Shown here piece by piece: positions 4,980 to 59,048 of a stretch of DNA of 64,000 bases. The DNA is from Minisyncoccota bacterium (GTDB taxonomy: Bacteria; Patescibacteriota; Minisyncoccia; Phycocordibacterales; UBA1006): positions 537,080 to 601,079 of the forward strand of contig DASWYC010000002.1 in the NCBI GenBank assembly GCA_036405175.1. The letters are read 5' to 3'. The notes under the pieces are model-generated. The model was not told where the DNA came from. It ran no database searches and saw only the letters and a program-made list of their open reading frames with translations. Both the position numbers and the translations under genes were made by a program. The stretch's first letter is position 1, and each line of letters begins with the position of its first letter.

Positions 4980-5603
4980 CTATTCAGAAAATAAAGCCTC
5001 GCTCATACTTTTAAACACTTCTTCCGGTGTTCCATTTCCATCAATCTCATGAAAATGATAGTTTCTATAGTCTTTTAAGAGCGAAAGTGCGGGCAACGTA
5101 TGCCAATCAAACCATTCAAGACGGGTCATAATTCCTTGTTCAGTATCATCTTTCCGATTCCGCGCCTTCATGCGCTTCATGCAATTTTCTTTTGAGGTAT
5201 TCAAATACACAATATGAATATTAAAGCGTTCAAAGAATTGAAGAGCTTGTTCAGCAATAAGCACCTCTTCTTGGCGACGGCAAAAACCATCTAAAATAAT
5301 GTCTGATTCTTTTTTAGCACTCGTTAAAAGTTTATGAGTCCATGACCAGATAGGCAGACATGCTGGCATAAGGCGGCCATGATCAATATTAAATTTCACC
5401 AGATGTCCTCCATAGGTATCCATTTCAGCTGCTTCACGCAACAATTCTCCAGTTTCAACCTTTACCACATGACGTTTGCGCTTTTCTAGAAACTCTTTTA
5501 AAAGTTTTGCTTGTGTTCCCTTTCCTGCTCCTGATCGTCCAAATAACAAAATTGTAAACGGTTCCTGAGGAGACAACATATCAGATTTATTATAACAAAC
5601 CAT
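4980..5603 (-). CDS. adk: Adenylate kinase (true start possibly the internal Met at MLSPQEP)
   Basis: P-loop LLFGRSGAGKGTQAKLL. Position between secY and map. Otherwise divergent sequence. Confidence 0.8.
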   Translation of the reverse strand: MVCYNKSDMLSPQEPFTILLFGRSGAGKGTQAKLLKEFLEKRKRHVVKVETGELLREAAEMDTYGGHLVKFNIDHGRLMPACLPIWSWTHKLLTSAKKESDIILDGFCRRQEEVLIAEQALQFFERFNIHIVYLNTSKENCMKRMKARNRKDDTEQGIMTRLEWFDWHTLPALSLLKDYRNYHFHEIDGNGTPEEVFKSMSEALFSE

Positions 5604-5674: not shown

Positions 5675-5684
5675 TTTGCTTTAG

Positions 5685-5809
5685 GGCTTATATGGTTTCT
5701 GAGTAGTCGCGCAGCGGCTGATAGGGAGCGCTATTGCGCAGCTTTGGCGCGACCATATCAGACCGTGAGCGTAGGCTCGGTAGAGGCCGCTACGAAGAAA
5801 CCATATAAG
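5685..5809. repeat. Structured repeat element copy A (long subtype), in the secY-adk spacer, inserted at the centre of palindrome gcttatatggtttct|agaaaccatataagc
   Basis: Shares conserved core with copies at 10043, 18383, 41624 and 45136: agtcgcgcagcggctgata…gcgcgaccatatcagacc.tgagcgtagg.tcggtagaggccgct. Flanked by a 15-bp perfect inverted repeat unique to this copy. Confidence 0.85.
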
Positions 5810-5874
5810 CTCATAATTCTAAATAATAACAAAAACCCCACTCTTTCGAGTAGGATTTTTTAGTTTCAATACAA

Positions 5875-7149
5875 TTAGAGCTGTCCAAGTTCCAAGTAGG
5901 CATCAACCTTCTTGATAACATCAGTAATCACGTTAACCGCAATCAATACCGAGGTTCCTCCAATAGCAAACAACTGCATGTTGGTTGCGTTTTGGATGAT
6001 AACTGGCAATACTGCAATGAGTCCTAAGAAGATAGAACCAAATACGGTGATGCGAGTAAGGATATTACCAATGTGCTCAGCAGTGTCTTCTCCTGGGCGA
6101 ACGCCTGGAATAAAGGCACCGTTCTTTTGGAGGTTTTCTGACATTGATTCTACATCAACCGTAACAGCGGTATAGAAGAAGGTAAAGATTACCACCAACA
6201 AGAAATATGTGAGCGGATACCAAATATGAGTTTGAGAGAACATTTCAAATGCACGCAATACATTATATGCGGTTCCCGTAGTACTCGTACCTACAATAAG
6301 GCGCAAGATAAACTGTGGGAACAACAAGATTGCTGGTGCAAAGATGATTGGCATCACTCCGGTCATGTTGATACGGAGTGGAATATAGCTTGATACACCA
6401 CCAAACATATTTCCGCTGCGTGTTGACTTAGCATATACAATTGGCACTGGACGTTCAGCCTCAGTTACATACGTAATACCTGCAACAATGATTACCAAGA
6501 GGAGCAAAAGCCCAATGTACATTGGCAACATTTGAGGGGTATATGTGAGCGACGCTTGTGAGACGATACGAGGAATTGATGCCACGATTCCGGCGAACAC
6601 CAGCATTGAGGTTCCATTTCCAATACCGTACTCGGTTAAGAGTTCTCCAATCCACATTGCCAATACTGACCCTGCGGTAATGATGAGCATGTTTGAAAGC
6701 ATGATCATCGGCGTCATATTTGGAATAACTCCTTGCTTAGACAAAAGCAACAAGAATGCGAGTCCCTGGATGAGTGCCAATGGCACGGTCAACCAACGCG
6801 TATAATTGTTGAATTTCTTGCGACCAATACTTCCCTCTTCGTGATACATCTTTTTGAGTGATGGAATCATCACCGTCATAAGCTGCAAAATAATAGAAGC
6901 GGTAATATATGGCCCAATTCCGAGCATTCCAAGAGAAAGGGTTGAAAGTCCTCCTCCTGAGAAGATGTTAATGAGTCCAAGGAACTGATTGGCATTCAAG
7001 AAATTTTGAATCTGAGATGCATCAATTCCAGGGATTGGAATATTTGAGAGCAATCTAAACGCAAAGAAACCAATCAAGATAGCCAAAAACTTTGCAAGAA
7101 TTCGTTTATCGCGGAACATTGCGGCAATTTTAGAGGTGGCTATATTCAT
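5875..7149 (-). CDS. secY: Preprotein translocase subunit SecY
   Basis: 424 aa, 10-TM profile. Conserved SecY segments (GIMPYITASIILQLM-like, plug and hinge regions). Directly downstream of rplO. Confidence 0.9.
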   Translation of the reverse strand: MNIATSKIAAMFRDKRILAKFLAILIGFFAFRLLSNIPIPGIDASQIQNFLNANQFLGLINIFSGGGLSTLSLGMLGIGPYITASIILQLMTVMIPSLKKMYHEEGSIGRKKFNNYTRWLTVPLALIQGLAFLLLLSKQGVIPNMTPMIMLSNMLIITAGSVLAMWIGELLTEYGIGNGTSMLVFAGIVASIPRIVSQASLTYTPQMLPMYIGLLLLLVIIVAGITYVTEAERPVPIVYAKSTRSGNMFGGVSSYIPLRINMTGVMPIIFAPAILLFPQFILRLIVGTSTTGTAYNVLRAFEMFSQTHIWYPLTYFLLVVIFTFFYTAVTVDVESMSENLQKNGAFIPGVRPGEDTAEHIGNILTRITVFGSIFLGLIAVLPVIIQNATNMQLFAIGGTSVLIAVNVITDVIKKVDAYLELGQL

Positions 7150-9834: not shown

Positions 9835-10042
9835 AATTATATATAAAGCGACCGCACCCCTACTGTGCGTAGTGGCGCATTAATTGATAACAGAGACGAT
9901 ATCTTCGTGATAATTGAGAACTATTCAAGTGTTTCTGCGTGAAATCTTGAGTGAGTTTTCATGTGCCACGGATCCTTCTCTAGGGAAAATACTAACAAAT
10001 TTAAGTGGTTTTGTCAAAAAGTTAGTCATGAGCCAACTTCTC

Positions 10043-10167
10043 AACCCTAGCCATGAGAGCAGTCGCGGAAACTGCCGATAGGGAGCGCTGTTGCGTAGCT
10101 TCGGCGCGACCATATCGGACAGTTGAGCGGAGGGCCGGTAGAGCCCGCTGCGATCATGGCCAGGGTT
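10043..10167. repeat. Structured repeat element copy B (long subtype, most diverged), between the rpsZ start and the divergent dsbA-like gene
   Basis: Core is homologous to copies A and E, with compensating changes (ccgata…tatcgg versus ctgata…tatcag). Flanked by near-perfect inverted repeat aaccctagccatga / tcatggccagggtt. Confidence 0.8.
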
Positions 10168-10193
10168 AAATTTGCTCATGATATACTTTCCTC

Positions 10194-10922
10194 ATGAAAG
10201 CACATCATAAGGAAAATACGATTTATACCACCATTTTAATAATAGTCCTTGGAATTATCGCTGTTTTTGCAGTTTCAGCATCAAAAACCCTTGATAGTAT
10301 TAATACCCCCCGAATTGGTAATTGGAGCCTCCTACCGCAGGTTATCAATGTGCCACTTTCAAAGGTTGGCGTGCGCGAAAAAGACCTTGCTCCATGTCTT
10401 GATAATCCAGAAACTCAACAAATTATTGCTCGCGATGCTGAAGAGGCTGGCCCTACCGGAACACCTCTCTTCTATATTTTCTCAAAGGATCACACTTATC
10501 GTATGGTTGGAGCAATTCCTGCAGCCATGCTCACTCAAATGATTGACACCCTTCAAGCTGGTCGTCCTATTGCTACCCCAGCAGAAGCCGAAGGTAATTT
10601 TCAAGAAATTTCTGCCGATGCTCCAGAAATGGCATATCTCAATCTTCGCCCTACCGATGCGCGCTTAAATGCAACACTTACAAACCCATCAGTAACAATC
10701 ATTGAGTACGGCGATCTTTCATGCCCTGCATGTAAATATGCGCACCAAGAACTCAAAAAGGCTCTTTCAAAAGAAACTACTGTGCAGTATATATATCGCC
10801 ATCACCCACTTACCAGCATTCACCCTGACGCACAAAAGCAAGCAGAAGTTGCCGTATGTGTGCAGCAACTTAAAGGATACAAGGCATTCTGGGACTTTGT
10901 AGATTACACCTACAAACAATAA
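10194..10922 (+). CDS. Membrane-anchored DsbA-like thiol:disulfide oxidoreductase with apparently permuted motif order
   Basis: N-terminal TM helix. The C-terminal half has …VTIIEYGDLSCPACKYAH…HHPL…FWDFVDY (the DsbA CxxC N-subdomain). The N-terminal half has …CLDNPETQQI…GPTGTPLFYIF… (normally the C-terminal DsbA subdomain). Confidence 0.65.
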   Translation: MKAHHKENTIYTTILIIVLGIIAVFAVSASKTLDSINTPRIGNWSLLPQVINVPLSKVGVREKDLAPCLDNPETQQIIARDAEEAGPTGTPLFYIFSKDHTYRMVGAIPAAMLTQMIDTLQAGRPIATPAEAEGNFQEISADAPEMAYLNLRPTDARLNATLTNPSVTIIEYGDLSCPACKYAHQELKKALSKETTVQYIYRHHPLTSIHPDAQKQAEVAVCVQQLKGYKAFWDFVDYTYKQ

Positions 10923-10926
10923 TCAC

Positions 10927-10957
10927 TAAAAAATCCCTCACTAGTGAGGGATTTTTT
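10927..10957. terminator. Bidirectional rho-independent terminator aaaaaatccctc-actagt-gagggatttttt
   Basis: Perfect 12-bp stem flanked by A and T runs. Lies downstream of both the dsbA-like gene (+) and rplE (-). Confidence 0.75.
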
Positions 10958-10973
10958 AGTGTGTCTGCAAATA

Positions 10974-17990: not shown

Positions 17991-18350
17991 ATGACACTTT
18001 TTGAGAAAATTATTGCACGAGAAATCCCCGCACATATTGTGTACGAGGATGATCACCACATTGCCTTTTTAGATATTTTCCCTGACGCACCTGGGCACAC
18101 ATTGCTTGTTCCTAAAAAGGTTACACGCTGGTTTTATGAAATGTCCGAGGAAGAATTTGCAACCCTCATGACAACCGGACATAAACTCACCAAACACCTT
18201 AACGAGAAGTTGGGATCAGAGTCAGTGAAACTTTTAATCTATGGTGAGAAAGTTCCGCACACCCACCTTCACCTTATTCCTCTCTACCCAGAAGGTTATC
18301 CATTACCAACCGACACGCTTGAGCAAATGACGGAGCGGCTCAAGGTATAA
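17991..18350 (+). CDS. HIT-family (histidine triad) hydrolase
   Basis: HTHLHLIP histidine triad. 119 aa. Confidence 0.8.
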   Translation: MTLFEKIIAREIPAHIVYEDDHHIAFLDIFPDAPGHTLLVPKKVTRWFYEMSEEEFATLMTTGHKLTKHLNEKLGSESVKLLIYGEKVPHTHLHLIPLYPEGYPLPTDTLEQMTERLKV

Positions 18351-18382
18351 CCATCCCACAACTTGGTTAGCGAAACAGTGTT

Positions 18383-18499
18383 AACAAAAACCACTTTGTA
18401 GCAGTCGCGCAGACGGCTGATAATGAGCACGTTGTGCGAATATATCAGACCGCGAGCGTAGGGCCGATAGAGCCCGCTGCGTACAAAGTGGTTTTTGTT
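18383..18499. repeat. Structured repeat element copy C (short subtype), between convergent HIT and pgk genes, inserted at the centre of the 36-bp palindrome aacaaaaaccactttgta|tacaaagtggtttttgtt
   Basis: Conserved core gcagtcgcgcagacggctgataatgagcacgttgtgcgaatatatcagaccgcgagcgtagggccgatagagcccgctgcg. Flanked by a perfect 18-bp inverted repeat that resembles a split bidirectional terminator. Confidence 0.85.
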
Positions 18500-18515
18500 A
18501 TTTAAGAATGTTTCA

Positions 18516-19640
18516 CTATCTCAGCCCCTCAATCCCTACCAGTGTTCCGGTGCCAAGATAATCAAGCAATGCACCACCACCTGTTGAGACAAAAATATTT
18601 TTATGGTTCACAATCTCATCAGACAAGAATACCAGCGTATCACCTCCTCCCATCACCACCTTCTTATCAAGATTCATGAGAAGTTTCACCAACATATGAG
18701 TTGCTATACTATCCCCCTTCCCAAGTTGTCCATTCCAAAAAATCTTCTCAACATTTTTAAAACGTTCCACAAGAACAACCTCAAGTGTTTTCGGATCTGC
18801 ATCCCAGATCATTTCACCGGCTCGAATCTCTTTTACTGACACCGCATGATCCGTTGCAAGATTAGTGCGCACCAGCTCCGGTGCAAACATGCGAGTGTCG
18901 TGCGGAATGTCGGCAAGTTTAATATTCTTATCGGTGAGTGAATCACCAATTGAATACCCAAGTGATTCATAGTACGGATGAGCAAGTGCACCACCAAGCA
19001 TCAAAAACTGCAACAATGGATTTTCCAAAAATCCTTTCACAAGGGGCAGTTTGGTTGAAAGTTTATCTCCACCAATAATCACCCCAAGTGTTTCATCGCT
19101 CATAATGAAACTATCAATGGTGTGAAGTTCAAGAACCATTCCTTCTCCCAAATAGGCTGGTAACTTTTTTGCAATCCCCGAAACACTTGCGTGATCTCGA
19201 TGTGAAACAGAAAACGCCTCATTCACAAACACCTCACCGAGTGATGTGTATAAATCAACAACCGCTGGATCATTGGTAGTTTCACCAGTAAGCGTGCGTA
19301 CATTTTGAAGCAACAACACCTCACCATCTTCAAGGTTATTCACCACCTCTTTCAAACCTTCATCAAAACTTCCGTAGAAACTTGGATAAATGTTATAGAG
19401 TTCAAACAATGGAATAAGTGTCTCGGTGCTACGCGCACCATCGTCACCCAAGTGTGTCATCAAGATTACGCGTGCACCGGCTTCTGACAACTTATGAATA
19501 GTGTCCCGCGCACGCTCCAAACGAAGCAGTGAGATTCCTTTCTCTCCACGCTCCACAACTTCTTCTGGAATATTCCCATCAAAGCGCACAAGCACGCGCT
19601 TACCCTTACAATTTTTATAAAGATCGTGAATATTATTCAT
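18516..19640 (-). CDS. pgk: Phosphoglycerate kinase
   Basis: 374 aa. N-terminal …VLVRFDGNIP… and hinge/C-domain …GGGDT… are PGK-like. Adjacent to tpiA. Confidence 0.8.
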   Translation of the reverse strand: MNNIHDLYKNCKGKRVLVRFDGNIPEEVVERGEKGISLLRLERARDTIHKLSEAGARVILMTHLGDDGARSTETLIPLFELYNIYPSFYGSFDEGLKEVVNNLEDGEVLLLQNVRTLTGETTNDPAVVDLYTSLGEVFVNEAFSVSHRDHASVSGIAKKLPAYLGEGMVLELHTIDSFIMSDETLGVIIGGDKLSTKLPLVKGFLENPLLQFLMLGGALAHPYYESLGYSIGDSLTDKNIKLADIPHDTRMFAPELVRTNLATDHAVSVKEIRAGEMIWDADPKTLEVVLVERFKNVEKIFWNGQLGKGDSIATHMLVKLLMNLDKKVVMGGGDTLVFLSDEIVNHKNIFVSTGGGALLDYLGTGTLVGIEGLR

Positions 19641-22315: not shown

Positions 22316-22328
22316 TTTCCAGAACCAC

Positions 22329-22358
22329 AAAACCCCACATCAATTGATGTGGGGTTTT
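22329..22358. terminator. Bidirectional terminator aaaaccccacatcaattgatgtggggtttt
   Basis: Perfect 12-bp stem, flanked by A and T runs. Lies between ppa (+) and the Thr-rich ORF (-). Confidence 0.75.
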
Positions 22359-22438
22359 GCATATTTAGATGCTATAGAGAAAACCACCCTTTCGGGTGGT
22401 TTTCGATGTGCGATATATATGTGCGCGCACGAACGAGA

Positions 22439-22705: not shown

Positions 22706-22856
22706 ATTTGAACTTTAATCTAGTGTACAAAGAGAACCGATGTTCTTTTATAATTACACATCGACCGTGTACCATCCTAGTATACAATGCTTATTTACAA
22801 GGTCAATTTACTTTCCACATAACACCACACAATTATTACTCAATAAAGTCTTCATG

Positions 22857-22883
22857 TTGAGTCGCGCCTGCGGCGCGACTCAA
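22857..22883. other. GC-rich perfect hairpin ttgagtcgcgcc-tgc-ggcgcgactcaa in the tig upstream region
   Basis: 12-bp stem seen directly. Shares the gagtcgcgc / ggcgcgac motifs with the 5-copy repeat family. Confidence 0.5.
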
Positions 22884-22946
22884 CCATATCCCATCTTTAC
22901 ATTTATAGGTTTTATCGGTACACTTCCGTAACTAATAACTATATAT

Positions 22947-24646: not shown

Positions 24647-24660
24647 TTGGCAAAACAATT

Positions 24661-24692
24661 AAAGCCCGACGAGCTTCACTCGTCGGGCTTTA
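24661..24692 (+). terminator. Terminator aaagcccgacgagcttcactcgtcgggcttt after clpP
   Basis: 11-bp stem plus T-run. Confidence 0.7.
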
Positions 24693-24790
24693 ATCTTATC
24701 TTCATTTGTCGTCACAACAAAATCTGTTATGATCAAGATGAGGACCTTCCGTCACGACTGATCCTCATTACTCAATAATCATTTCCGCAT

Positions 24791-27333: not shown

Positions 27334-27404
27334 TGCGGGTGAAGGGAATCGAACCCTTGTCTTCTGCTTGGAAGGCAGACATTCTACCACTAGACCACAC
27401 CCGC
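27334..27404 (-). tRNA. tRNA-Gly (anticodon UCC)
   Basis: Cloverleaf: acceptor gcgggtg/cacccgc; anticodon stem tctgc/gcaga with loop cttccaa; T-arm aaggg-ttcgatt-ccctt. Confidence 0.85.
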
Positions 27405-28686: not shown

Positions 28687-28759
28687 CGGGGTGTGGTGTA
28701 ACGGCTAACATGCTGGTTTTGGGTACCAGTGACTCCGGGTTCGAATCCCGGCACCCCGA
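28687..28759 (+). tRNA. tRNA-Pro (anticodon UGG)
   Basis: Acceptor cggggtg/caccccg; anticodon stem ctggt/accag with loop tttgggt (G37); T-arm ccggg-ttcgaat-cccgg. Confidence 0.85.
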
Positions 28760-29515: not shown

Positions 29516-29586
29516 GCGGGTATGGTCTAGTGGTAGAATGCGTCCTTGCCAAGGACGAGACAGGAGTTCGATTCTCCTTACCCGCA
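29516..29586 (+). tRNA. tRNA-Gly (anticodon GCC)
   Basis: Acceptor gcgggta/tacccgc; anticodon stem cgtcc/ggacg with loop ttgccaa; T-arm aggag-ttcgatt-ctcct. Confidence 0.9.
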
Positions 29587-29613: not shown

Positions 29614-29685
29614 GCACTTATGGTGAAATGGATATCACGACTGACTTCGGATCAGTTATTCTAGGTTCGAATCCTGGTAAGTGCA
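29614..29685 (+). tRNA. tRNA-Arg (anticodon UCG)
   Basis: Acceptor gcactta/taagtgc; D-arm gtga…tcac; anticodon stem actga/tcagt with loop cttcgga (G37); T-arm ctagg-ttcgaat-cctgg. Confidence 0.7.
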
Positions 29686-32069: not shown

Positions 32070-32106
32070 TTGTACAAAAGCGCCTGACCGTACGGTCAGG
32101 CGCTTT
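32070..32106 (-). terminator. Terminator acaaaagcgcctgaccgtacggtcaggcgcttttgt
   Basis: 15-bp GC-rich stem flanked by A/T runs. Downstream of the methyltransferase gene. Confidence 0.7.
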
Positions 32107-32123
32107 TGTATCACGTGTACCAT

Positions 32124-34556: not shown

Positions 34557-35210
34557 ATGCTACAAACTCATGAACGCGTCGTTTTCTTAATTGACGCACA
34601 AAACTGTTATCACACAACTCAAAATCTCTATCATCGTAATCCAAACTTTTTGGGAATCATTAAAGAAATTCTTGGTGATCGCCATCTTTTACGTGCACTT
34701 GCATATGTAATTGCAACGGAAAAGGGGGACGAAACCGCATTTCTTGAAGCACTTTCTTCAAACGGTATTGAGCTCCGTAAAAAAGATCTTCAAGTCTTTT
34801 ACGACGGCGCCAAAAAAGGTGATTGGGATGTTGGAATGGCTATTGATGCGGTTATTCTTGCCGAAAAAGCTGACACTATTGTGTTGGTTACGGGAGATGG
34901 AGACTTCGTTCCACTCGTGGATTATCTTCGTCATAAAGGTGTTCGCGTTGAAATTGCATCATTTGTACAGCGCACCTCGCAAAAACTTGTTGATGCGTCG
35001 CACCGATTCTTTAATCTTTCAGAAGCACCATCAAAATTTGTGATTGGAGGATTGGGCAATAACGGCCGTAAACATGCCGCAAAACGCCCACGTGCAAAAG
35101 CAAACAATGCTAATAGTAATAGTGCAACAGGAAATACCACTCCGGCAGCACCAAAAAAGCAACAAGCGCCTGAACAGGTGAAGCTTACCAAAGCGAATAG
35201 TGTTAACTAA
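34557..35210 (+). CDS. NYN/LabA-like (PIN-related) domain protein with basic C-terminal tail
   Basis: …VFLIDAQN…DVGMAIDAVILAEKADTIVLVTGDGDFVPLVDYLRHKGVRV… matches the NYN/DUF88 core. Confidence 0.7.
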   Translation: MLQTHERVVFLIDAQNCYHTTQNLYHRNPNFLGIIKEILGDRHLLRALAYVIATEKGDETAFLEALSSNGIELRKKDLQVFYDGAKKGDWDVGMAIDAVILAEKADTIVLVTGDGDFVPLVDYLRHKGVRVEIASFVQRTSQKLVDASHRFFNLSEAPSKFVIGGLGNNGRKHAAKRPRAKANNANSNSATGNTTPAAPKKQQAPEQVKLTKANSVN

Positions 35211-35213
35211 TAT

Positions 35214-35241
35214 AAAAATCGCAGAGCAATCTGCGATTTTT
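35214..35241. terminator. Bidirectional terminator aaaaatcgcagagcaatctgcgattttt
   Basis: 9-bp stem with A/T flanks, between convergent genes. Confidence 0.7.
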
Positions 35242-35249
35242 ATATATTT

Positions 35250-36041
35250 CTAAAGAATAAAATCTTTTGAAAACTTTTTTGTATAGGCTTCAGCTTTTTT
35301 AATATTCCGTGAAATTCTTAGTTTGACTTTGTGATTTCCATTAACCAACTCTGTTACACGAGCAACCAATTCTTTTTCTGTATCCGATGTTTCATAAATG
35401 CCGTCCAAGTCTTCAGCAAAACCAACCGTAAATTGAGCTTCAAAAACATAATCACCCAACACATTCACATATTCATATGTAGGAATTTTATAATCAAGGC
35501 CCGTATTAATAGAAATAAAATCTGATCGATACTTCTTTGCAAACAACAAATCATTTTCTGTATCTTTTGCAACACTTACACATAACCTACGCTTATCTTG
35601 ATTAAATTTATTAAATACAGCCTCTTCACTTTCTTTATGGGCCACCATAAACCACTCGTGGGGATCGTAAATAAAAACTGGTCCGTTTGTTTCTGAATAT
35701 GCCTGCAAAAAGTAATGCGCCCAGATTCTGTCTGTCTCCAAAGGATTAAAGAACGAAAGTGCAATAGAATCACCCTCTTCAAGATGGTTTGGAAGAATAT
35801 TTGACGGAGAGAGGGAAGCAATGAGCTTTTCTTTCCATAAGTTATTTATAAGGAATTGGGTACCCTGTTTAAGCACCACCTTTTCTTCAATCAGATTGTT
35901 GAGGGATTTATACATTCCTTGTTTTGAGTATTTAGCTTGTTTATTTATTGAACCTAAAAGATCTTTTCCTGATTGAGGGGATATTTGAAGAAGCGTATCA
36001 ATAATAAGTTCTTTTAAATGTTCTGAGCGAAAGAGATTCAT
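35250..36041 (-). CDS. Putative wHTH transcriptional regulator (TrmB/MarR-like N-terminus + ~200-aa C-terminal domain), paralog 1
   Basis: N-terminal …SPQSGKDLLGSINKQAKYSKQGMYKSLNNLIEEKVV… Colinear similarity to ORF 37694-38491 over the full length, for example …KVKLRISRNIKK… versus …KFTLRIYKNSQK…. Confidence 0.5.
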   Translation of the reverse strand: MNLFRSEHLKELIIDTLLQISPQSGKDLLGSINKQAKYSKQGMYKSLNNLIEEKVVLKQGTQFLINNLWKEKLIASLSPSNILPNHLEEGDSIALSFFNPLETDRIWAHYFLQAYSETNGPVFIYDPHEWFMVAHKESEEAVFNKFNQDKRRLCVSVAKDTENDLLFAKKYRSDFISINTGLDYKIPTYEYVNVLGDYVFEAQFTVGFAEDLDGIYETSDTEKELVARVTELVNGNHKVKLRISRNIKKAEAYTKKFSKDFIL

Positions 36042-36146
36042 ATGTTATTAATAGTATAAACCAATGGTTTACTATTTTTATATTCACTACTCTTACTAAG
36101 CAGATCTACACATTTTTAAACTTTTTCTTTACAAAGTGACCAATAT

Positions 36147-36172
36147 TTGACTATTTACTGAAAGTATTGCAA
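36147..36172 (+). promoter_or_regulatory. Operator/promoter-like motif TTGACT-atttaCTGAAAGTATTGcaa upstream of the 36264 gene (copy 1 of 2)
   Basis: Near-identical motif at 38617-38643. Both lie in the divergent spacer next to a paralogous wHTH regulator. Confidence 0.55.
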
Positions 36173-36263
36173 ATATCAGATACAGTATCCTAGAAATCAT
36201 TTAAAAAACCTGTTTACTGGTTACCCTAAAATGGAAAACCTATGCTCATCCTACGCTTAAGAA

Positions 36264-36731
36264 ATGGATAGTAAACATAAACCATATACGAACATGTCAC
36301 TATTAATGTTTATCATTATCGCAGCCGTTATTCTTATCATTAGCGCATATTTCATTATTGGACAAATGTCTATGATGCCAAAGATCTACCCTGAGGCTAT
36401 TGCTAAGCATGGCGATATTGAGCAGCTCAACATCAAAAAGGACAGAATGGCAAGGATATTTTTTATCATAAGTATTATCTTTTTTATAATAGGCTTACCC
36501 ACGTACTTCTTGTTTGAAACTTTTGGTGCAATGGTACGCTCAGAAGCAGGGAGGGCTTCTCTTCTTGCACTAGAAGCATTGGGTTTTTCTATGTTCTACC
36601 TTATGGTTTACTTAAAAAATCTCCACGATGACGAAAAAGTCCTTACGAATGAGCCCGTTGATCTGAGCCAGATTCCCAATACTGCACCAGATTTTATAGA
36701 GGCTATTCCAGGGGCTTCTAACCTCACATAG
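36264..36731 (+). CDS. Hypothetical membrane protein (3 TM helices)
   Basis: Hydrophobic segments LLMFIIIAAVILIISAYFIIG, IFFIISIIFFIIGLPTYFLF, LLALEALGFSMFYLMVYL. Confidence 0.5.
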   Translation: MDSKHKPYTNMSLLMFIIIAAVILIISAYFIIGQMSMMPKIYPEAIAKHGDIEQLNIKKDRMARIFFIISIIFFIIGLPTYFLFETFGAMVRSEAGRASLLALEALGFSMFYLMVYLKNLHDDEKVLTNEPVDLSQIPNTAPDFIEAIPGASNLT

Positions 36732-36909
36732 AAGTCTTTAGCGTTTTTCACAATAAGAGTAATTATAATAATTACTCTTATTTTTTTATCCACCTTGGTA
36801 AACCTTTACTTTACAATCTATTAATTATTTACATATTTTAAGCAATTTTGTCAATAATCTACTAGAATGGTTCTTGAAGCAACTACCTGTTTCATTCAAA
36901 CCAAAAACT

Positions 36910-37680
36910 ATGAAAAAAGAACTTATCATCATTGTCGGAGCAAACGGAGAAATCGGAACTGAATATATCAACTCCTTAAAAACCAATTTGAATATTGAAA
37001 TACTTGCTGTTACACTTTCAAAACCTTATCACGATCCTTCAATTAACAATATTAGAGTTGACGTGCGAGATTATGAGGCGATTGAGCAGGCACTTGCTCA
37101 CATTAATTTACAAGACTACTTACGCGTTATTTATCTTCACTCTATTGGAACAGACGTATTTGAGTGGACTAACTACCCTCAAAAGCTTTATCGAAAAACT
37201 ATTCCGGAAAGCGTTTATGATTCAAACGTAAACACCTTTAAATATCTTTTACGATATTTATCAGAAAAGCTAAAGCGCACCAATACTGAACTTAAGGTGG
37301 TACAAATTGCCGGAGTTGCTGATAAATATGGATTTATGGTGATTGAATCGTTTCATGAGTGTAAAAAAATCACGAGAGCCTATGCGCGAGACCTTTGTGA
37401 TCTATATCCAAACATTTCAGGGCTTACAATTAATATCACCTCTTGTATCACCAAATCAGCATTGGAAGTGCGTCCTTTTGCGGATACTTCAAAGGGATGG
37501 CTTACACCTCAGGAAGTTGTATCTGAAAGTATTTCTTCAATACTAAGTAGCGAATGTGGATATCAAGAAATAAATATTCTCAAGCCGCTTCCCAGCTTTA
37601 ATCCTCAGGAATATTACGAGAATCAAGATCGTATATATGAAAAGTGGGCTAAAGAAATTGGAATCAAAAAAGCCATGTAA
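36910..37680 (+). CDS. NAD(P)-binding Rossmann-fold protein (SDR/epimerase-like)
   Basis: N-terminal IIIVGANGEIGTEY glycine-rich dinucleotide-binding motif. Confidence 0.5.
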   Translation: MKKELIIIVGANGEIGTEYINSLKTNLNIEILAVTLSKPYHDPSINNIRVDVRDYEAIEQALAHINLQDYLRVIYLHSIGTDVFEWTNYPQKLYRKTIPESVYDSNVNTFKYLLRYLSEKLKRTNTELKVVQIAGVADKYGFMVIESFHECKKITRAYARDLCDLYPNISGLTINITSCITKSALEVRPFADTSKGWLTPQEVVSESISSILSSECGYQEINILKPLPSFNPQEYYENQDRIYEKWAKEIGIKKAM

Positions 37681-37697
37681 TTTCATGGCTTTTTTAT
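37666..37697. terminator. Bidirectional terminator aaaaaagccatgtaatttcatggctttttt
   Basis: Stem gccatg…catggc with A/T flanks, between convergent genes. Confidence 0.65.
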
Positions 37698-38491
37698 ATA
37701 ATTTCTTTTTTAATTCTTTTCCAAATTTTCTGTTGTTTTTGAGAGTTTTTGTAAATACGGAGCGTAAACTTTGAAGGATTATCAATTACCCTATTAACAA
37801 TATCTCTTGGTGTACCAGATTCAAAAAAATCAGTCATCATATCCATCCACTGTGAATCATATGTAGTCTCAATCATATAATCATCAAACAAGTTAAACCC
37901 TACATATTTATCAAGCTTTTCGTCAAACACCACCTGCACACCCAGAGATCTAATTTCCGAGATATCAGCCATCATGGTGTCATTAATAGCAGGAAGAGAG
38001 ACCCAAACGATCGAGTATCCAAAACTTTGCAAGTGCTTGATAAAAAGTGTTGCCTGTTCTTTTGAGTACCGGAAATACATTGAATACGGCTCAAACAAAC
38101 AATAATATCGCTTTTCTTTCTGAGACTTTTTTAAAAGGAAAGCTGCATTGTCCCAAAAGTTATTAAGATCCTTAAAAGTTTCAAATACGAATGACACCTT
38201 GGAGGTGTCTTTAATTTCCGGTAAAAACGCAAGAGTAGCATCATCCTTATAATAAGTTTTAGTGAGTGCTAGGTAATATTCTCGAATACGAGCAATAAAT
38301 AATGCAGAAATAGCTAATATTTTTGCATTTTCGATAATTACTTCTTTATCCTTAAGCTTATTAATAATCTTATAAACACCCTGAGGAGTCATGGAAAGCT
38401 TTTTTGAAATATCAGAAATAAGTTTCTTTTTTATAATTGGTCCTTTTTCGAGTAGCTCAATTACTTCTTTTTCTGGAGAATCAAACACCAT
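37694..38491 (-). CDS. Putative wHTH transcriptional regulator, paralog 2
   Basis: N-terminal …ISKKLSMTPQGVYKIINKLKDKEVI… Colinear similarity to ORF 35250-36041. Confidence 0.5.
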   Translation of the reverse strand: MVFDSPEKEVIELLEKGPIIKKKLISDISKKLSMTPQGVYKIINKLKDKEVIIENAKILAISALFIARIREYYLALTKTYYKDDATLAFLPEIKDTSKVSFVFETFKDLNNFWDNAAFLLKKSQKEKRYYCLFEPYSMYFRYSKEQATLFIKHLQSFGYSIVWVSLPAINDTMMADISEIRSLGVQVVFDEKLDKYVGFNLFDDYMIETTYDSQWMDMMTDFFESGTPRDIVNRVIDNPSKFTLRIYKNSQKQQKIWKRIKKEII

Positions 38492-38616
38492 ATTGAAATT
38501 AGTGTATCATATTTTAAACTCAATGTTTATTTTTTTAATTAAAACTACCCCATACACCACATTAAATGCAAAATTTGTTTATTTTTAAACTATTTATTTA
38601 AAATGGTGCTGTATTA

Positions 38617-38643
38617 TTGACTTTTTCTGAAAGTATTGTGACT
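38617..38643 (+). promoter_or_regulatory. Operator/promoter-like motif TTGACT-ttttCTGAAAGTATTGtga upstream of the 38698 gene (copy 2 of 2)
   Basis: Matches 36147-36172. Followed by tatact -10-like hexamer at 38651. Confidence 0.55.
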
Positions 38644-38697
38644 TTAAACTATACTGTTCTCAGATAAATTATTTACAAACCAAAAACATTTAAAAAT

Positions 38698-39168
38698 ATG
38701 AAAAATATATTAGTATACGGACAAAGAAACAGCTTCATTGAAAATGACCTTAATACAGGCTGGACTATATATGGCAATGTATCAGTTTTTGCAGCCTACA
38801 AAGGCATGCATCTATCAGAAGAAGGTGGCTTTGGTGAGAATGAAGTACAAATAGAGTTCTCTCAAAAAATGTCATCACACCTCTCGCTATCATTATTGAT
38901 CATGCTTCAAGAATATTCTCATTTATTCGACAAAGTATATGTTTATCTTGATGGGGTAAGGTATACAACACTCATTGATGAGTTACAATTCCGCAATATC
39001 CCAGCAGATAAAGTTATATTCTTTATTATGCCCGACAAACAGTCTACACTTAAGAAAGAACAGTATCTGGAGGAGCGTGGGTATGGAAAGTCTGAAATAA
39101 TTGATTGTGACTCGTGTGCGGTGGAAGAAATAGGAATACTTATAAACAATTTTAAAAAGGAGGTATAA
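38698..39168 (+). CDS. Hypothetical protein (156 aa)
   Basis: Clean ORF. Operator motif upstream, strong terminator downstream. No recognisable motif. Confidence 0.5.
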   Translation: MKNILVYGQRNSFIENDLNTGWTIYGNVSVFAAYKGMHLSEEGGFGENEVQIEFSQKMSSHLSLSLLIMLQEYSHLFDKVYVYLDGVRYTTLIDELQFRNIPADKVIFFIMPDKQSTLKKEQYLEERGYGKSEIIDCDSCAVEEIGILINNFKKEV

Positions 39169-41549: not shown

Positions 41550-41554
41550 ATTTA

Positions 41555-41582
41555 TTAAAGCTCCACATATGTGGAGCTTTAA
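41555..41582 (+). terminator. Terminator ttaaagctccacatatgtggagctttaa after pnp
   Basis: 11-bp stem. Confidence 0.7.
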
Positions 41583-41623
41583 TTTTCTAAACAGATTATT
41601 GCAAGTGCTTTTAAGGTCTTCTC

Positions 41624-41734
41624 AAATCTCTATCATCAAGCAGTCGCGCAGCGGCTGATAATGAGCACATGGTGCGAATATATCAGACCGCGAGCGTAGG
41701 CCCGGTAGAGGCCGCTGCGCGATGATAGAGATTT
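41624..41734. repeat. Structured repeat element copy D (short subtype), downstream of the pnp terminator, at the centre of palindrome aaatctctatcatc|gatgatagagattt
   Basis: Core cagtcgcgcagcggctgataatgagcacatggtgcgaatatatcagaccgcgagcgtaggcccggtagaggccgctgcgc. Inner 10-bp stem gcgcagcggc/gccgctgcgc. Outer stem 14 bp. Confidence 0.85.
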
Positions 41735-41757
41735 AATATGAGCTATAATAAAACCAC

Positions 41758-45103: not shown

Positions 45104-45130
45104 ATAGCCAGAATTATTCTGGCTTTTTAT
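45104..45130 (+). terminator. Terminator atagccagaattattctggctttttat after comM-like gene
   Basis: Stem agccagaat/attctggct plus T-run. Confidence 0.7.
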
Positions 45131-45135
45131 ATTCC

Positions 45136-45254
45136 AAACACTTCTTGTGGAGCAGTCGCGCAGTGGCTGATACGAGCGCCATTGCGTAGCTTTGGCGCGA
45201 CCATATCAGACCACGAGCGTAGGGTCGTAGCCCGCTGCGACACAAGAAGTGTTT
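45136..45254. repeat. Structured repeat element copy E (long subtype), between convergent comM-like and M23 peptidase genes, at the centre of palindrome aaacacttcttgtg|cacaagaagtgttt
   Basis: Core gagcagtcgcgcagtggctgatacgagcgccattgcgtagctttggcgcgaccatatcagaccacgagcgtagggtcgtagcccgctgcga. Outer stem is a perfect 14-bp inverted repeat. Confidence 0.85.
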
Positions 45255-45255: not shown

Positions 45256-46266
45256 TTAACACGCTGTCATCCCAAATGATACACATGGAATTGGTGGACC
45301 GTTACGAATTTCAAAATGAAGGTGAGGACCAGTTGATTGCCCGGTATTTCCTGATTCTCCAATCACCGTTCCTTGTGAAACATACTCACCAACTGATACA
45401 AAGTTTTTTGAATGGTGTGCATACAATGTCTGTGATCCGTTTGCGTGCTCAATAACAATATAGGTTCCATATCCACCACCCCATCCACCTGATGAAGCAA
45501 TGATTACCGTTCCACTCATTGAGGCAACTACAGGAGTTCCAACAGGTGCGCCAATATCGATTGCGCGGAAACGTCCATGATATCCTTGTGTTTTTACTCC
45601 TTTACCAGCAAGCGGATGTTTATACGATGAACTTCCAGCGCCAGAGCTACTTGTTGCTTTTTCTTTCTTAGCAATCTTTTCAAGCACTTTTGGTGTTTGT
45701 TTTGGCTTTACGGGTGTTGCAACCACAAGAGGTTCTGCTCCTGGAACAATGATTTTATCGCCAACCTTAATCGTTCCTTCACCGTCAATACTGTTAAAAT
45801 CACGAATTTCAGATTCTTGTGCTTTATATAATTGTGCAATTTTAGAAATAGTTTCTCCTGATTTCACGACGTGGGTCACTCCATCAACTGGCAAAATTAC
45901 CAATTGCTGCCCAACTTTAAGTGCATCTTTAGCATTTAAACCATTTTGCCATCGAATAGTGTTTACGGTTACGCCAAATTTCTGTGAAAGAGAAGAAAGA
46001 GTATCGCCAGTTTGAACCGTATAGGTGGTAATATCTCCGTATTCTTCATCATCAGGATCAACAATTCCTTCTTCAGAAATTGATTCAAATCCGCGAGAAC
46101 TCAAAATGAGTGGCATCTCGGTTGGTGTTGGCATGGTATCTGCCGTTAAACTTTGTTTTGAAAGTAAATCAACGTGATCATTCACCACAGCATCTTGAGC
46201 CTGTGCCTTACTTGAATGAATTAAAATACTGATTCCAGCAAGCAATAAACACCCCACCCCAAGCAC
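45256..46266 (-). CDS. Secreted M23-family metallopeptidase with two LysM domains
   Basis: Signal peptide. LysM segments (…YTVQTGDTLSSLSQKFGVTVNTIRWQN…; …HVVKSGETISKIAQLYKAQESEIRDFN…). M23 core …HLHFEI… with HxxxD/HxH pattern. Confidence 0.8.
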   Translation of the reverse strand: MLGVGCLLLAGISILIHSSKAQAQDAVVNDHVDLLSKQSLTADTMPTPTEMPLILSSRGFESISEEGIVDPDDEEYGDITTYTVQTGDTLSSLSQKFGVTVNTIRWQNGLNAKDALKVGQQLVILPVDGVTHVVKSGETISKIAQLYKAQESEIRDFNSIDGEGTIKVGDKIIVPGAEPLVVATPVKPKQTPKVLEKIAKKEKATSSSGAGSSSYKHPLAGKGVKTQGYHGRFRAIDIGAPVGTPVVASMSGTVIIASSGGWGGGYGTYIVIEHANGSQTLYAHHSKNFVSVGEYVSQGTVIGESGNTGQSTGPHLHFEIRNGPPIPCVSFGMTAC

Positions 46267-48752: not shown

Positions 48753-50927
48753 TTGTCAAAAATATTTTTAACATGCGATATACTAATACGTATGGATGAT
48801 CAGCACGATGACAAATTAGCATATTCACTTCCACGTCGTGACACGATTGCAGATGAAGAATTAGATCTTAAAAAACTTCAGGAAGAAGAGTTGCTCAAAT
48901 CTCAAGCACCTCTTTTGGGTTTCACGTACATCAATCTTAAAATTACTCCGCTCACCAACGATGCGCTTGGTGCAATTGCAGAAGATAGAGCTCGCAAAGC
49001 ATTCTGTGCTGGATTTAAACTTATCAACAAAGATCTCCACATTGCTATTCGCTATCCATCATCAGATGAATGGAAAAATCTTTTAACTGAATTACAAAAA
49101 ACTTATACGGTTCATCTGTATCTTGCTTCACTTGAAAGCCTCAACTTTGCATGGTCACACTATGAAGATATTTCACGTGCAACACGCTCACGAGAGTCTT
49201 TGATTGATCTTTCAGAAACCAGTATTCAAGAAATTGAATCAAAGATTTCTACCAATGCAGATATTATTGCACTCTTTAAAACTATTTCTGAACAAGATAC
49301 TCAGCGTGTTACCCGCATGATTGAAATCTTGATGGGAAGTGCCATTGCAACAAAATCTTCAGATATTCACGCAGAGCCTACAGAAACTAATGTCCGCATT
49401 CGCTATCGCCAAGATGGTGTTTTACAGGATGTTTTAACCCTTACTCACGAAACGTACAAACAAGTTTTATCTCGTATCAAAGTGCTTTCTGGACTTAAAA
49501 TTACTCGCACCAAAGAAGCACAAGATGGACGATTTTCTATTAAGTCTCACGACAAAGATGTTGAAGTACGTGTTTCTACCGTTCCAAGTGCATACGGAGA
49601 AAGTTTAGTAATGCGTGTACTTGACCCTGATGGACTTCAGGTTGATCTTACTGAACTCGGATTCAACGAGACTCTGCTTCCTATTATTCAACAGGAAATT
49701 ATTCGTCCTGATGGTCTTATTTTAACCTGTGGACCAACCGGATCAGGAAAAACCACCACCCTCTATTCATTCTTAAAGCAAGTATATAGCCCTGATTCAA
49801 AAATCATTACTATTGAAGATCCAATTGAATATCACCTTGATGGTATTGAGCAAACTCAAGTTGAAACAGAAAAAGGATATACATTCTTGCTTGGACTTCG
49901 ATCAGCGCTTCGCCAGGATCCAGATATCATCATGGTGGGAGAAATTCGTGACGGAGAAACAGCACAAACTGCCATTAATGCATCATTGGCAGGGCACATG
50001 GTGTTCTCAACGCTTCACACCAACTCAGCAGCAGGAGCAATTCCACGCCTTTTGGATTTGAAAGTTTCAGGAGGAACCCTCAGATCGTCGCTTCAAACTA
50101 TTTTGGCACAGCGATTGGTGCGTAAATTGTGTCCGCATTGCAAAGAAGCGTATAAAGCATCGGAGCATGAAATGGATATTCTTAAAAAAATCATCACTAA
50201 TGCATCACCAGCTAAAAATTTAAGTTCATACCTCACACAAACTGAAGAACCTTTTACACTTTATAAACATGTTGGCTGTCCGCAATGTGATGGAACAGGA
50301 TATAAAGGTCGTATTGGAATCTTTGAAGGTATTCAAATGACACATGAGATTGAAAATCTTCTTGAGAATAACAATATTCCAAGTGAACGTGACGTATGGT
50401 ATGCCGCTCGCAATCAAGGAATTCTTACGATGGGTGAGGATGGAGTCGTAAAACTCTTAAACGGAGTAACATCATACGATGAAGTGGAGCGTGTTGTTGA
50501 TCTTACTGGATATGGAACCATTTATGATTCAACTATTGGTCAACCAATCGCATCAGCAACTGCTTCACCAACATTTGCACAGATGGAACATCACATTGAA
50601 GTATCACCGGATGTACCAACAATTACTGAAACTTCAACACCATTTGCGTTACTCTTAAATTATCTTGAACTTCTTATTACAGAACAAACAAAAAACCCAA
50701 CAAAGAATGCAACACATCAAATTGAGTTGGTAAAAAAAGCTCTTGGCGAGCTTCAACAACAAAATAGTTTTACACCACGGCACAATGATGCATCGGGTGC
50801 ACAAGAACTTAGTAAAATTTTAAATTTCCTTGATGCACTTTCAAATCATCAACAGCAAAATCCACATATTGGCGTAGAACAAGAACTCGAAAATGTAAAG
50901 TTGCATTTATCTGACTTACAAAAGTAA
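48753..50927 (+). CDS. Type II secretion / type IV pilus assembly ATPase (GspE/PilB family) with ~170-aa unique C-terminal extension
   Basis: Walker A LTCGPTGSGKTTT, Asp box …DPDIIMVGEIRD…, His box …GHMVFSTLHTNSA…, tetra-Cys CPHC…CPQCDGTGY. The C-terminal tail (…QQQNSFTPRHN…HQQQNPHIG…) has no counterpart in canonical PilB. Confidence 0.8.
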   Translation: MSKIFLTCDILIRMDDQHDDKLAYSLPRRDTIADEELDLKKLQEEELLKSQAPLLGFTYINLKITPLTNDALGAIAEDRARKAFCAGFKLINKDLHIAIRYPSSDEWKNLLTELQKTYTVHLYLASLESLNFAWSHYEDISRATRSRESLIDLSETSIQEIESKISTNADIIALFKTISEQDTQRVTRMIEILMGSAIATKSSDIHAEPTETNVRIRYRQDGVLQDVLTLTHETYKQVLSRIKVLSGLKITRTKEAQDGRFSIKSHDKDVEVRVSTVPSAYGESLVMRVLDPDGLQVDLTELGFNETLLPIIQQEIIRPDGLILTCGPTGSGKTTTLYSFLKQVYSPDSKIITIEDPIEYHLDGIEQTQVETEKGYTFLLGLRSALRQDPDIIMVGEIRDGETAQTAINASLAGHMVFSTLHTNSAAGAIPRLLDLKVSGGTLRSSLQTILAQRLVRKLCPHCKEAYKASEHEMDILKKIITNASPAKNLSSYLTQTEEPFTLYKHVGCPQCDGTGYKGRIGIFEGIQMTHEIENLLENNNIPSERDVWYAARNQGILTMGEDGVVKLLNGVTSYDEVERVVDLTGYGTIYDSTIGQPIASATASPTFAQMEHHIEVSPDVPTITETSTPFALLLNYLELLITEQTKNPTKNATHQIELVKKALGELQQQNSFTPRHNDASGAQELSKILNFLDALSNHQQQNPHIGVEQELENVKLHLSDLQK

Positions 50928-50964
50928 TCTACGACAAGAGCGTGAGCTAAAAACTCTGATATAC

Positions 50965-51140
50965 TTAATCACGTACAGCTTTGTACGCACACAAAAACCC
51001 ACACACAAGTTTCTTGGCTACCCTACCCCTGAAGAGGTATTGAGAAAGTAGATGAGGATAACCACAGCCTAGGCCATGATGTCCTTTCTAAGAACTCAGA
51101 CTTGCGCCGGTAACCAAGAAACTTATACGTGGGTTGTAAG
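50965..51140 (+). ncRNA. Candidate structured RNA / structured 5' region in the 430-bp pilB–ruvB spacer
   Basis: Hairpin cgtaca-gctt-tgtacg (50971-50988). Long-range complementarity 50993-51020 (aaacccacacacaagtttcttggctacc) versus 51109-51135 (ggtaaccaagaaacttatacgtgggtt), ~25 bp with G·U pairs, enclosing ~90 nt. Strand not determined. Confidence 0.25.
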
Positions 51141-51360
51141 TGCGTCTCCTAAAGATATAAAAAATCACATCTCATATTTTGAGACGACTACACCGCTATT
51201 CAAATTACAAAAATCTATCAAATGATCCTTAATTTGCTAACACTACTATCTTAGCATATTTTATTTCATTTGTCAAATAATCTATAAAAAGAGCTTTTCT
51301 GTCAATAACTTATACCACACGCCGTTTGGCGGTTTTTTTATTTGCTCGTATACTATCATC

Positions 51361-58896: not shown

Positions 58897-59031
58897 ATGT
58901 CAATTACGTATCACCCACGAAAAAAGAAAAGAAAGACTACTCACGGATTCTTGGTACGCATGAAAACCGCGAATGGACGTTCTGTAATCCGTCGCCGTCG
59001 TGCCCAAGGACGAAAATCATTGAGCGTGTAA
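58897..59031 (+). CDS. rpmH: 50S ribosomal protein L34
   Basis: [44 protein letters not shown] is canonical L34 (44 aa). Missed by the longest-ORF track because an overlapping frame was reported instead. Confidence 0.9.
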
Positions 59032-59048
59032 TACGCTATAGTAGGCAT

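Follow-up and report, generated by a model that had tools for sequence, protein, structure and literature searches.

A family of structured intergenic repeats in the hairpins of a Candidatus Paceibacterota genome

Five copies of a repeat in 64 kb

The window analysed here, a stretch of 64,000 nucleotides of contig DASWYC010000002.1, is chromosomal DNA from a metagenome-assembled genome of Candidatus Paceibacterota, which belongs to the Candidate Phyla Radiation (CPR). The genomes of CPR bacteria, or Patescibacteria, are tiny and are regarded as poor in mobile DNA. Five copies (A to E) of a repeat occur in the window, singly and 3-23 kb apart, among housekeeping genes (secY/adk, S14, PGK, PNPase, comM), and all five are intergenic. 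The conserved part of each copy is a GC-rich core of 80-97 nt located between two outer arms. A covariance model seeded from four of the copies (R1) yields exactly five matches in the window, all on the + strand and with scores of 104-129 bits; the runner-up scores, which derive from ordinary hairpins, do not exceed 18.6 bits, and on the reverse strand the copies reach 9-16 bits. A pattern of the 3' box of the core gives 4 matches in the window versus 0.00 expected. A first-pass annotation, made from the sequence alone, had placed the five copies at these positions and had described the shared 5' and 3' boxes as well as two length subtypes, short in C and D and long in A, B and E, all of which is confirmed. 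Copies A-E fold far more stably than shuffled sequences (z -6.0 to -8.7).

A truncated copy lies at a contig end (L142 1-45), ~3.8 kb to the right of the window and on the strand opposite to that of copies A-E, where it directly adjoins the stop codon of a gene for a TraG/VirD4-like P-loop protein (L142 47-1873). The 6.4 kb to the left of the window contain no copy. Five short-read contigs (L130, L142, L143, L148, L151) end inside four different copies, L142 and L143 within the same one, as is expected of a genome-wide repeat. In practice, the element breaks short-read assemblies and yields spurious calls of open reading frames (ORFs). Gene calls within copies are repeat artefacts, among them an 84-aa ORF over copy B (9925-10179, - strand) and a 31-aa 'gene' in a Logan contig (L151 4281-4373) over A', the copy found at site A in a sister strain that is introduced below.

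Copies C, D and E lie in sense orientation downstream of + strand genes, and copies A, D and E each sit between a terminator and the next promoter. No promoter or terminator is shared among the copies, sequence conservation ending at the boundary of the fold, and neither did the analysis reveal a consistent relation of the copies to flanking genes or transcription units. The number of promoter-like matches around the copies does not exceed that in shuffled sequences. Two such sites adjoin genes next to copies: TATAAT at 41744 is 8 nt before the ATG (41758) of a 451-aa gene, and an extended -10-like site (TGATATACT, 10178-10194) is 7 nt before the ATG of a DsbA-like gene. These sequences suggest that the mRNAs of both genes are leaderless or near-leaderless. 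The -35 position of both promoter-like sites falls in the 3' arm of the respective copy.

A conserved fold with a three-way junction

The sister strain (SecY 96.5% and ComM 91% identical; loci L136 and L146-L151), which differs from the window at 35% of four-fold degenerate sites, carries four further copies, designated A' to D' after their sites. All nine were aligned, with pairs counted on the core only. The copies share one minimum-free-energy (MFE) architecture consisting of an outer stem followed by a three-way junction. The core consensus is typically 5'-GA-GCAGUC...GCUGC-GA-3', in which a 2x2 loop, usually GA/GA, lies between the outer stem and P2. The latter (GCAGU/GCUGC) is the closing helix of 5 bp, and its last pair is an invariant U.G. 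At the three-way junction a 3-bp P3a opens the P3 arm, which proceeds through P3b, P3c (CUGAUA/UAUCAG), 2 bp, a tandem G.A loop and P3e with its short or long tip. P4 is a short hairpin (GGGC/GCCC) with a conserved 7-nt CGRUAGA loop. Unpaired purines in the core are likewise conserved. The boundaries given in the first-pass annotation include the outer stem (14-19 bp), but neither this stem nor the three-way junction was described there. A four-pair register of P3a was discarded because it is broken in B, A' and C', and was replaced by the 3-bp register C20-G88/G21-C87/C22-G86. A reading of the GA loops as a K-turn was rejected, as there is no 3-nt bulge beside the tandem G.A.

In this alignment, which was fitted to the model and whose sequences are related and exchange segments, so that there are fewer independent events than cells, 98.9% of the 280 core cells are paired, compared with 89.6% in shuffled controls and 24-40% in slid registers. 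Under the same proviso, 16 of the 33 core pairs have changes on both sides, compared with 6.5 +/- 1.5 after shuffling (0/500 shuffles reach 16) and 0-2 in slid registers. For example, P3e of C' is AUGUG/CACAU where C has GCAC/GUGC, and P3b of C' is ACGA/UCGU. G.U cells number 19 and A.C cells 1 across the nine copies, and the + strand folds more stably in 5/5 window copies, which indicates that one defined strand is under structural selection. The earlier claim that selection acts on single-strand secondary structure is borne out by strong covariation, and the claim that the repeat is not neutral is likewise supported.

Two helices proposed in the first-pass annotation belong to this fold, namely ctgata/tatcag, including the compensatory ccgata/tatcgg of copy B, and gcac/gtgc of the short subtype. 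Others have to be abandoned. A pairing termed 'P1' (gcgcagcggc/gccgctgcgc) forms a 12-bp helix in D only; over the nine copies, 70% of its cells pair and 0 pairs are compensatory, the same as in shuffles, and it is incompatible with the supported fold. As regards the gcgc-tatt-gcgc proposed for the long subtype, the partner of the first GCGC is the third rather than the second, with a small GC/GC hairpin in between, and the first-third pairing carries compensatory changes (pairs 45-62, 46-61, 49-58). An alternative pairing of the extra long-subtype segment with the 5' gtcgcgc is 87% paired, has 0 compensatory pairs and matches shuffles.

Outer stems and empty hairpins

Every window copy is closed by a copy-specific, essentially perfect outer stem of 14-19 bp. 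When the sister strain is included, 8 of the 9 copies are closed by copy-specific stems of 12-19 bp, the exception being B'. The core therefore occupies the apex, i.e. the loop position, of a long locus-specific hairpin. More than 20 'empty' palindromic hairpins are also present in the window; their perfect stems measure 10-20 bp, in most cases 14-20, and their loops 0-12 nt, in most cases 0-5. They are commonly preceded by an A-run and followed by a T-run, like bidirectional terminators, and several have no loop at all; the weak secondary matches of R1 are precisely these hairpins. Such A...T flanks accompany 5 of 7 outer stems. Of the window, ~9.3 kb is non-coding, and hairpin apices make up roughly 1-2% of that, as estimated from loop lengths. 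The location of nearly all copies at apices then calls for either targeting of tips or creation of the arms upon insertion.

Between the sister strains the empty hairpins change rapidly in sequence while their pairing stays perfect. The PNPase terminator differs by three compensatory double substitutions, and where the window has hairpin 10924-10961 the sister strain has one whose stem is entirely different. This suggests that the palindromes are under strong selection or templated self-correction. Since empty hairpins diverge fast and yet remain perfect, divergent arms at sites A and C are in themselves no proof of independent insertion. The junctions outside P2 vary (GA/GA, AA/GC, UC/GA, or none): a GA...GA dinucleotide flanks 5 of the 9 copies and a GTA trinucleotide flanks C, and GA is absent in D, D' and A'.

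The 5' arm of D (AAATCTCTATCATC, 41624-41637) recurs exactly within an NYN-domain gene (34622-34635), for which the chance expectation, estimated from base composition, is ~0.001 per arm. As a guide directed against this gene the arm was rejected; the sister strain has 2 mismatches without co-evolution, and the recurrence is probably a coincidence.

Turnover between strains

All four comparable spacers of the sister strain are occupied. D' is a true ortholog of D, with the same arms, the same unusual AA...GC junction and the same downstream sequence; its tip is of the long type and that of D is short and C-like (2/20 differences between the C and D tips, 20/32 between D and D'), and P4 is flipped between D and D' by a compensatory C-G to G-C change. 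A' lies in the same spacer and orientation as A, has different arms and contains a B-type core, with 6/93 differences from B versus 20/93 from A. At site B only a remnant is left, comprising the 3' end of the core and the 3' arm beside the promoter region of the DsbA-like gene; ~170 nt from it there is a full copy, B', in the opposite orientation and without an outer stem. C' is inverted relative to the flanking genes, differs from C in the inner half of the stem and has a strongly diverged core. Contig L151 was considered as an empty site and rejected, since it ends inside A'.

The cores group by type and not by site, as seen for B and A' and for C and D (6/80), P4 alleles are shuffled among copies, and the sequence common to B and A' extends 3-4 nt past the core at either end. 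Copies move, are lost and convert one another. For movement, inversion, decay and conversion between copies, the comparison of the strains provides direct evidence. Copies are gained, are lost by deletion, reside in either orientation within a spacer and replace segments of other copies.

In a more distant relative (SecY 83% and ComM 67% identical; loci L132, L133, L138, L139), no copy was found in ~43 kb, also with filters off. The secY-adk spacer of this relative is 80 nt long with one ordinary hairpin, compared with 271 nt in the window, and its spacers are too diverged to be aligned with those of the window.

When the exchanged tip is set aside, D and D' show 4/91 differences, two of which represent the compensatory P4 flip. 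Synonymous sites near D are 16-38% diverged, and the 240 nt of coding sequence adjoining D are ~6% diverged, with a third-position divergence of 16%, then 38%. Judged by these neighbouring sequences, D is conserved beyond neutral expectation, though less dramatically than the genome-wide figure of 35% implies. Ongoing conversion from other copies could contribute to this conservation.

Table 1. Copies of the repeat, empty hairpins and other mapped features. Positions are those of the window; bit scores were obtained with R1. Helix positions of copy A are from the nine-copy alignment A6.
Feature	Position	Strand	Properties	Arms and core	Neighbouring features
Copy A	5684-5812	+	Long subtype; 129 bits; MFE -74.3 kcal/mol, z -8.67	Arms 5684-5700 and 5796-5812, 15 bp perfect (outer stem 15-17 bp, GGGCTTATATGGTTTCT / AGAAACCATATAAGCTC); core 5701-5795	adk 4980-5603 (-), secY 5875-7149 (-); antisense to both
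Copy A, GA loops	5701-5702 and 5794-5795
Copy A, P2	5703-5707 with 5789-5793
Copy A, P3a	5708-5710 with 5769-5771
Copy A, P3	5714-5766
Copy A, P4	5774-5788
Copy B	10043-10167	+	Long subtype; 126.6 bits; z -7.83	Arms 10043-10056 and 10154-10167, 14 bp with one mismatch (A.C); core 10057-10153	Divergent spacer between rpsN/S14 (-) and DsbA-like gene 10194-10922 (+); ends 27 nt before the ATG of the latter
Copy C	18382-18500	+	Short subtype; 105 bits; z -8.35	Arms 18382-18400 and 18482-18500, 19-bp perfect terminator-like stem (AACAAAAACC...GGTTTTTGTT); core 18401-18481, an 81-nt 'loop'	Between convergent HIT 17991-18350 (+) and PGK 18516-19640 (-)
Copy D	41624-41734	+	Short subtype; 109.5 bits; ortholog D' in sister locus L136 8014-8132	Arms 41624-41637 and 41721-41734, 14 bp; core 41638-41720; 3' arm overlaps promoter-like ATGATA-16-TATAAT site, 41722-41749	Terminator hairpin of the PNPase gene, 41554-41583; 451-aa gene, ATG 41758
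Copy E	45136-45254	+	Long subtype; 104.3 bits; z -7.33; deletions of 3 nt in the P4 loop and 1 nt at the tandem GA loop	Arms 45136-45149 and 45241-45254, 14 bp; core 45150-45240	comM terminator hairpin 45106-45124; stop codon of convergent LysM/M23 gene 45256-46266 (-)
Empty hairpins (examples)	16-51, 10924-10961, 22328-22359, 24658-24694, 32073-32110, 35210-35245, 41554-41583, 59619-59655, 60948-60990
tRNA genes	27334-27404, 28687-28759, 29516-29586, 29614-29685		Rfam gathering level
oriC region	58681-58878		DnaA boxes 58741, 58807		Between dnaA 57296-58681 (-) and rnpA 58878-59396 (+)

A probable mobile repeat at hairpin tips

The repeat family is real, well supported and hitherto undescribed, and is so far confined to one narrow CPR lineage. 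In metagenomes of the JGI, a pattern of the 3' core (~24 specified bases) gave 0 matches and a pattern of the 5' core 1 match (L135), a chance match of high GC content. Three chance matches among IMG/VR viral contigs did not score with R1, and blastn of copy A against annotated plasmids and phages found nothing. A pattern with 16 specified bases, applied to 596 Gb of genome contigs, hit at least 120 loci, of which 100 were tested with model R2 and none scored; this pattern is too loose.

The first-pass annotation had left open whether the repeat is a mobile element or a small-RNA gene. The former is favoured, in a non-autonomous form, by the differences between strains in orientation, stem and core type, by the decay of one copy and by the clustering of cores by type; such turnover points to a mobile repeat. 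A conventional small-RNA gene is disfavoured by the lack of a shared promoter or terminator and of a consistent gene context, by the antisense position of A and A', by the placement of copies between a terminator and a promoter, and by the flips. We therefore give a probability of roughly 0.55 to an undescribed family of small, non-autonomous, structured mobile repeats that is specific to one narrow Paceibacterota lineage and colonises hairpin apices.

According to this model, the core would enter the tips of pre-existing hairpins and would not make its own arms. The many empty hairpins of the same kind, the A...T flanks of most outer stems and the armless B' favour such targeting of tips. The fold would serve, as single-stranded DNA or as a transcript, as a handle for a trans-acting factor encoded elsewhere. 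Recognition by such a factor would account for the maintenance of pairing by compensatory changes on one strand only; conversely, structural selection on one strand, together with conserved bases in loops and junctions, suggests that a folded single strand is recognised in trans. Nesting at the apex would allow the host hairpin to re-zip around the compact insert, such that copies are tolerated in a very compact genome, and flips could result when the inverted arms recombine or undergo template switching. A dedicated enzyme, should there be one, would recognise the three-way junction and target hairpin apices regardless of their sequence, which would be a new targeting logic. With five copies in 64 kb, a dense family nested in hairpin tips would illustrate how selfish or semi-domesticated DNA persists in tiny genomes.

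Several observations weigh against this model. No orthologous empty site with an intact hairpin was found among the compared spacers, so that entry into pre-existing hairpins is an inference, and B' lacks an outer stem. An ordinary terminator distinct from the copy lies next to each of A, D and E, which makes their outer stems extra hairpins. In the ~75 kb seen of the ~668-kb genome, no candidate transposase, recombinase or reverse transcriptase occurs, nor a RAYT, TnpA, TnpB or other Y1 gene; the Y1_Tnp domain is absent from the 20 window ORFs scanned with Pfam and from the precomputed Pfam calls of the compared loci. With only two carrier genomes, there are few covariation events, and some of these are shared because copies convert one another. 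Finally, the conservation of D and D' could reflect a function at the level of the host rather than selfishness.

Alternative explanations

The last point leads to the foremost alternative, a functional structured RNA module under host-level selection, which is possible but which we hold only tentatively. The module could be a small RNA cut from the outer stem as an RNase III-type substrate, a 3'-end stabiliser, an insert of a fail-safe terminator, or a protein-binding or catalytic RNA. The strong covariation and the 19:1 ratio of G.U over A.C on one strand are typical of RNA, and the conserved unpaired purines, the invariant U.G at the junction, the tandem G.A loop and the 7-nt P4 loop would be at home in such a molecule. 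Conservation of D and D' beyond local synonymous divergence and the sense orientation of C, D and E downstream of + strand genes point in the same direction. Should the element be an RNA, it would constitute a new class of structured RNA that covariation supports well. By contrast, conservation that stops with the fold in the absence of a common promoter or terminator, promoter-like matches no commoner than in shuffles, the decay of B in the sister strain, the flipping of B' and C' relative to B and C and the antisense orientation of A and A' to the secY-adk operon all argue against an RNA module.

Nor does Rfam lend support to an RNA module. A scan of the window with Rfam 15 at gathering thresholds recovered only 4 tRNAs, in agreement with the earlier annotation, which could not assign the repeat to a familiar repeat family. 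When copies A and D were searched in E-value mode (E<=10), the best scores of 12-25 bits, versus cut-offs of 43-88, were noise; the same applies to Transposase-2 RNA (12 bits, E=5). No score was obtained in Rfam for known self-cleaving ribozymes (hammerhead, twister, twister-sister, hatchet, pistol, hairpin, HDV-like), and Y RNA, 6S and riboswitch families did not match near threshold.

A bolder proposal makes the folded core itself the active principle of a mobility mechanism undescribed in bacteria, by which it would recognise any long hairpin, whether of DNA or RNA, by structure alone, invade it at the tip and be able to flip in place. We regard this as doubtful. Invasion might proceed via a host enzyme or through a catalytic or self-priming activity of the fold. 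In a weaker variant, the locus-specific arms may act as antisense guides, in line with the recurrence of the D arm in the NYN-domain gene.

Spread without any dedicated enzyme is another, quite unlikely, explanation. Replication template switching or gene conversion at palindromes would passively carry the core between hairpins, and the compact fold would be selected only because the host hairpin can still close around it. Patchy exchange (D with the tip of C, shuffled P4 alleles, a B-type A'), variable junctions and the nucleotides shared by B and A' outside the core on both sides are consistent with passive spread, as are the flips, which are the expected product of arm-to-arm switching, and the empty hairpins, whose rapid renewal with perfect pairing implies templated correction at palindromes. 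However, passive spread explains neither the conserved loop and junction nucleotides and the one-strand G.U asymmetry nor the arrival of the core at a new hairpin without donor homology, and B' lies outside any hairpin.

Comparison with known systems

Among established elements, integron attC sites share with the repeat a similar length range and a structure selected on one DNA strand. In attC sites, which are found behind the gene cassettes of arrays, the R''/L''...L'/R' boxes at the hairpin base are conserved and the tip is variable. The repeat has a conserved tip and a locus-specific base, and its copies are dispersed among housekeeping genes. MITEs are characterised by conserved terminal inverted repeats and direct target-site duplications. 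In the repeat, only the 5-bp P2 relates the two ends, the flanks are locus-unique repeats that are inverted and not direct, and the only candidate duplication is the 2-nt GA of some copies. With MITEs and with ERIC, Correia, RUP and BOX, the repeat shares its shortness, its intergenic and non-coding nature, its ability to fold and its dispersal in many copies (PMC3184786). TIGR (tandem interspaced guide RNA) arrays of CPR bacteria consist of tandem short repeat-spacer units beside a Tas gene (PMC12045711). The copies here are single, and no Nop-domain gene is among the window proteins scanned with Pfam.

The position inside extragenic palindromes is reminiscent of certain insertion sequences (IS). 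IS1397, ISKpn1, IS621 and ISPpu9/10 insert into REP sequences, and pre-existing extragenic palindromes provide a known safe haven for IS elements (PMC3337134, PMC1525189, PMC3333891). These, however, are full-length, protein-coding elements that recognise a repeated REP, whereas here a non-coding core of ~90 nt resides in hairpins without a common sequence. That the host hairpins share no sequence suggests that structure rather than sequence is recognised.

The element works most like REPINs and PATEs, yet it lacks the defining features tested for each family. REPINs and REP-BIME, which RAYT Y1 transposases mobilise, are likewise only ~90-110 nt long, have a higher GC content than the genome and occur in multiple copies that are strictly intergenic. 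A REPIN is defined by two conserved inverted REP units that flank a variable, paired spacer (PMC3337134). The present anatomy is the inverse, with variable paired ends around a conserved three-way junction and no REP doublet. PATEs of the IS200/IS605 family resemble the repeat in being small and non-autonomous with single-strand-specific structure, and their orientation may relate to replication. Such a PATE has two similar, imperfect subterminal hairpins, one at each end, to which the same TnpA binds, and insertion occurs 3' of a conserved tetra- or pentanucleotide without duplication. In the repeat, P3 (CUGAUA...UAUCAG) and P4 (GGGCC...GCCC) share no sequence and the termini pair with each other as P2; the 5' flanks differ from copy to copy (TTTCT, CATGA, TTTGTA, CATC, TTGTG, TATGG, GTGC, GACTT). 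The filing of the repeat as IS200/IS605-PATE-like or REP-like in the first-pass annotation is therefore not supported.

Replication polarity bears on the same question. The origin lies at ~58.8 kb, as located from dnaA, dnaN, DnaA boxes and the GC-skew minimum. In the window genome, 6/6 copies have one polarity relative to oriC, five to its left on the + strand and the truncated one to its right on the - strand, and the folded + strand of the five left copies is the leading-strand template. In IS608, the active folded strand is on the lagging-strand template, the opposite of the arrangement seen here. A strict replication-strand rule was rejected, as B' and C' break it in the sister strain. 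It is thus very unlikely that the repeat is a strict PATE or REPIN which a Y1 HUH transposase (TnpA or RAYT), encoded at another locus, mobilises as single-stranded DNA: strand-specific structure, uniform polarity in the window genome and the size, intergenic location and hairpin-based anatomy of REPINs (PMC3337134) speak for it, but the unrelated P3 and P4, the lack of a 5' target word, the inverted anatomy, the leading-strand location, the exceptions B' and C' and the lack of a Y1 gene in the DNA seen speak against it.

Over the ~35 kb to the left of dnaN (20000-55500), most genes are on the + strand and would thus run head-on to the replication fork. Head-on orientation over such a stretch is unusual for bacteria.

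Other features of the window

A GC-rich 13-bp hairpin in an AT-rich spacer (22856-22884, GTTGAGTCGCGCC-TGC-GGCGCGACTCAAC) has a counterpart with compensatory changes in the sister strain (GGTGAGCCGCGCC-TGC-GGCGCGGCTCACC, L146), and a similar hairpin (GAGTCGTAGC-GCA-GCTGCGACTC) is found in the S14/DsbA spacer of the distant relative (L132). It was considered as a relic of the repeat and rejected, since it has an ortholog of its own with compensatory changes and the 8-mer it shares has a chance expectation of ~0.7 occurrences, as estimated from base composition. The hairpin is, as its sequence comparison indicates, a separately conserved structure.

The spacer between a T2SSE/PilB-like gene and ruvB (50927-51361), which at ~430 nt is unusually long, contains an 11-bp stem (51007-51017/51114-51124) that encloses 96 nt. 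It has no Rfam match at E<=1 and is a candidate for a further non-coding RNA that lacks annotation. The NYN-domain gene is separated from pnp by a block (35250-39168) of five ORFs, three of which were scanned with Pfam without a match and none of which has a precomputed Pfam call. The gene content of this block differs among the window genome, the sister strain (L136) and the distant relative (L138), which marks it as a variable region.

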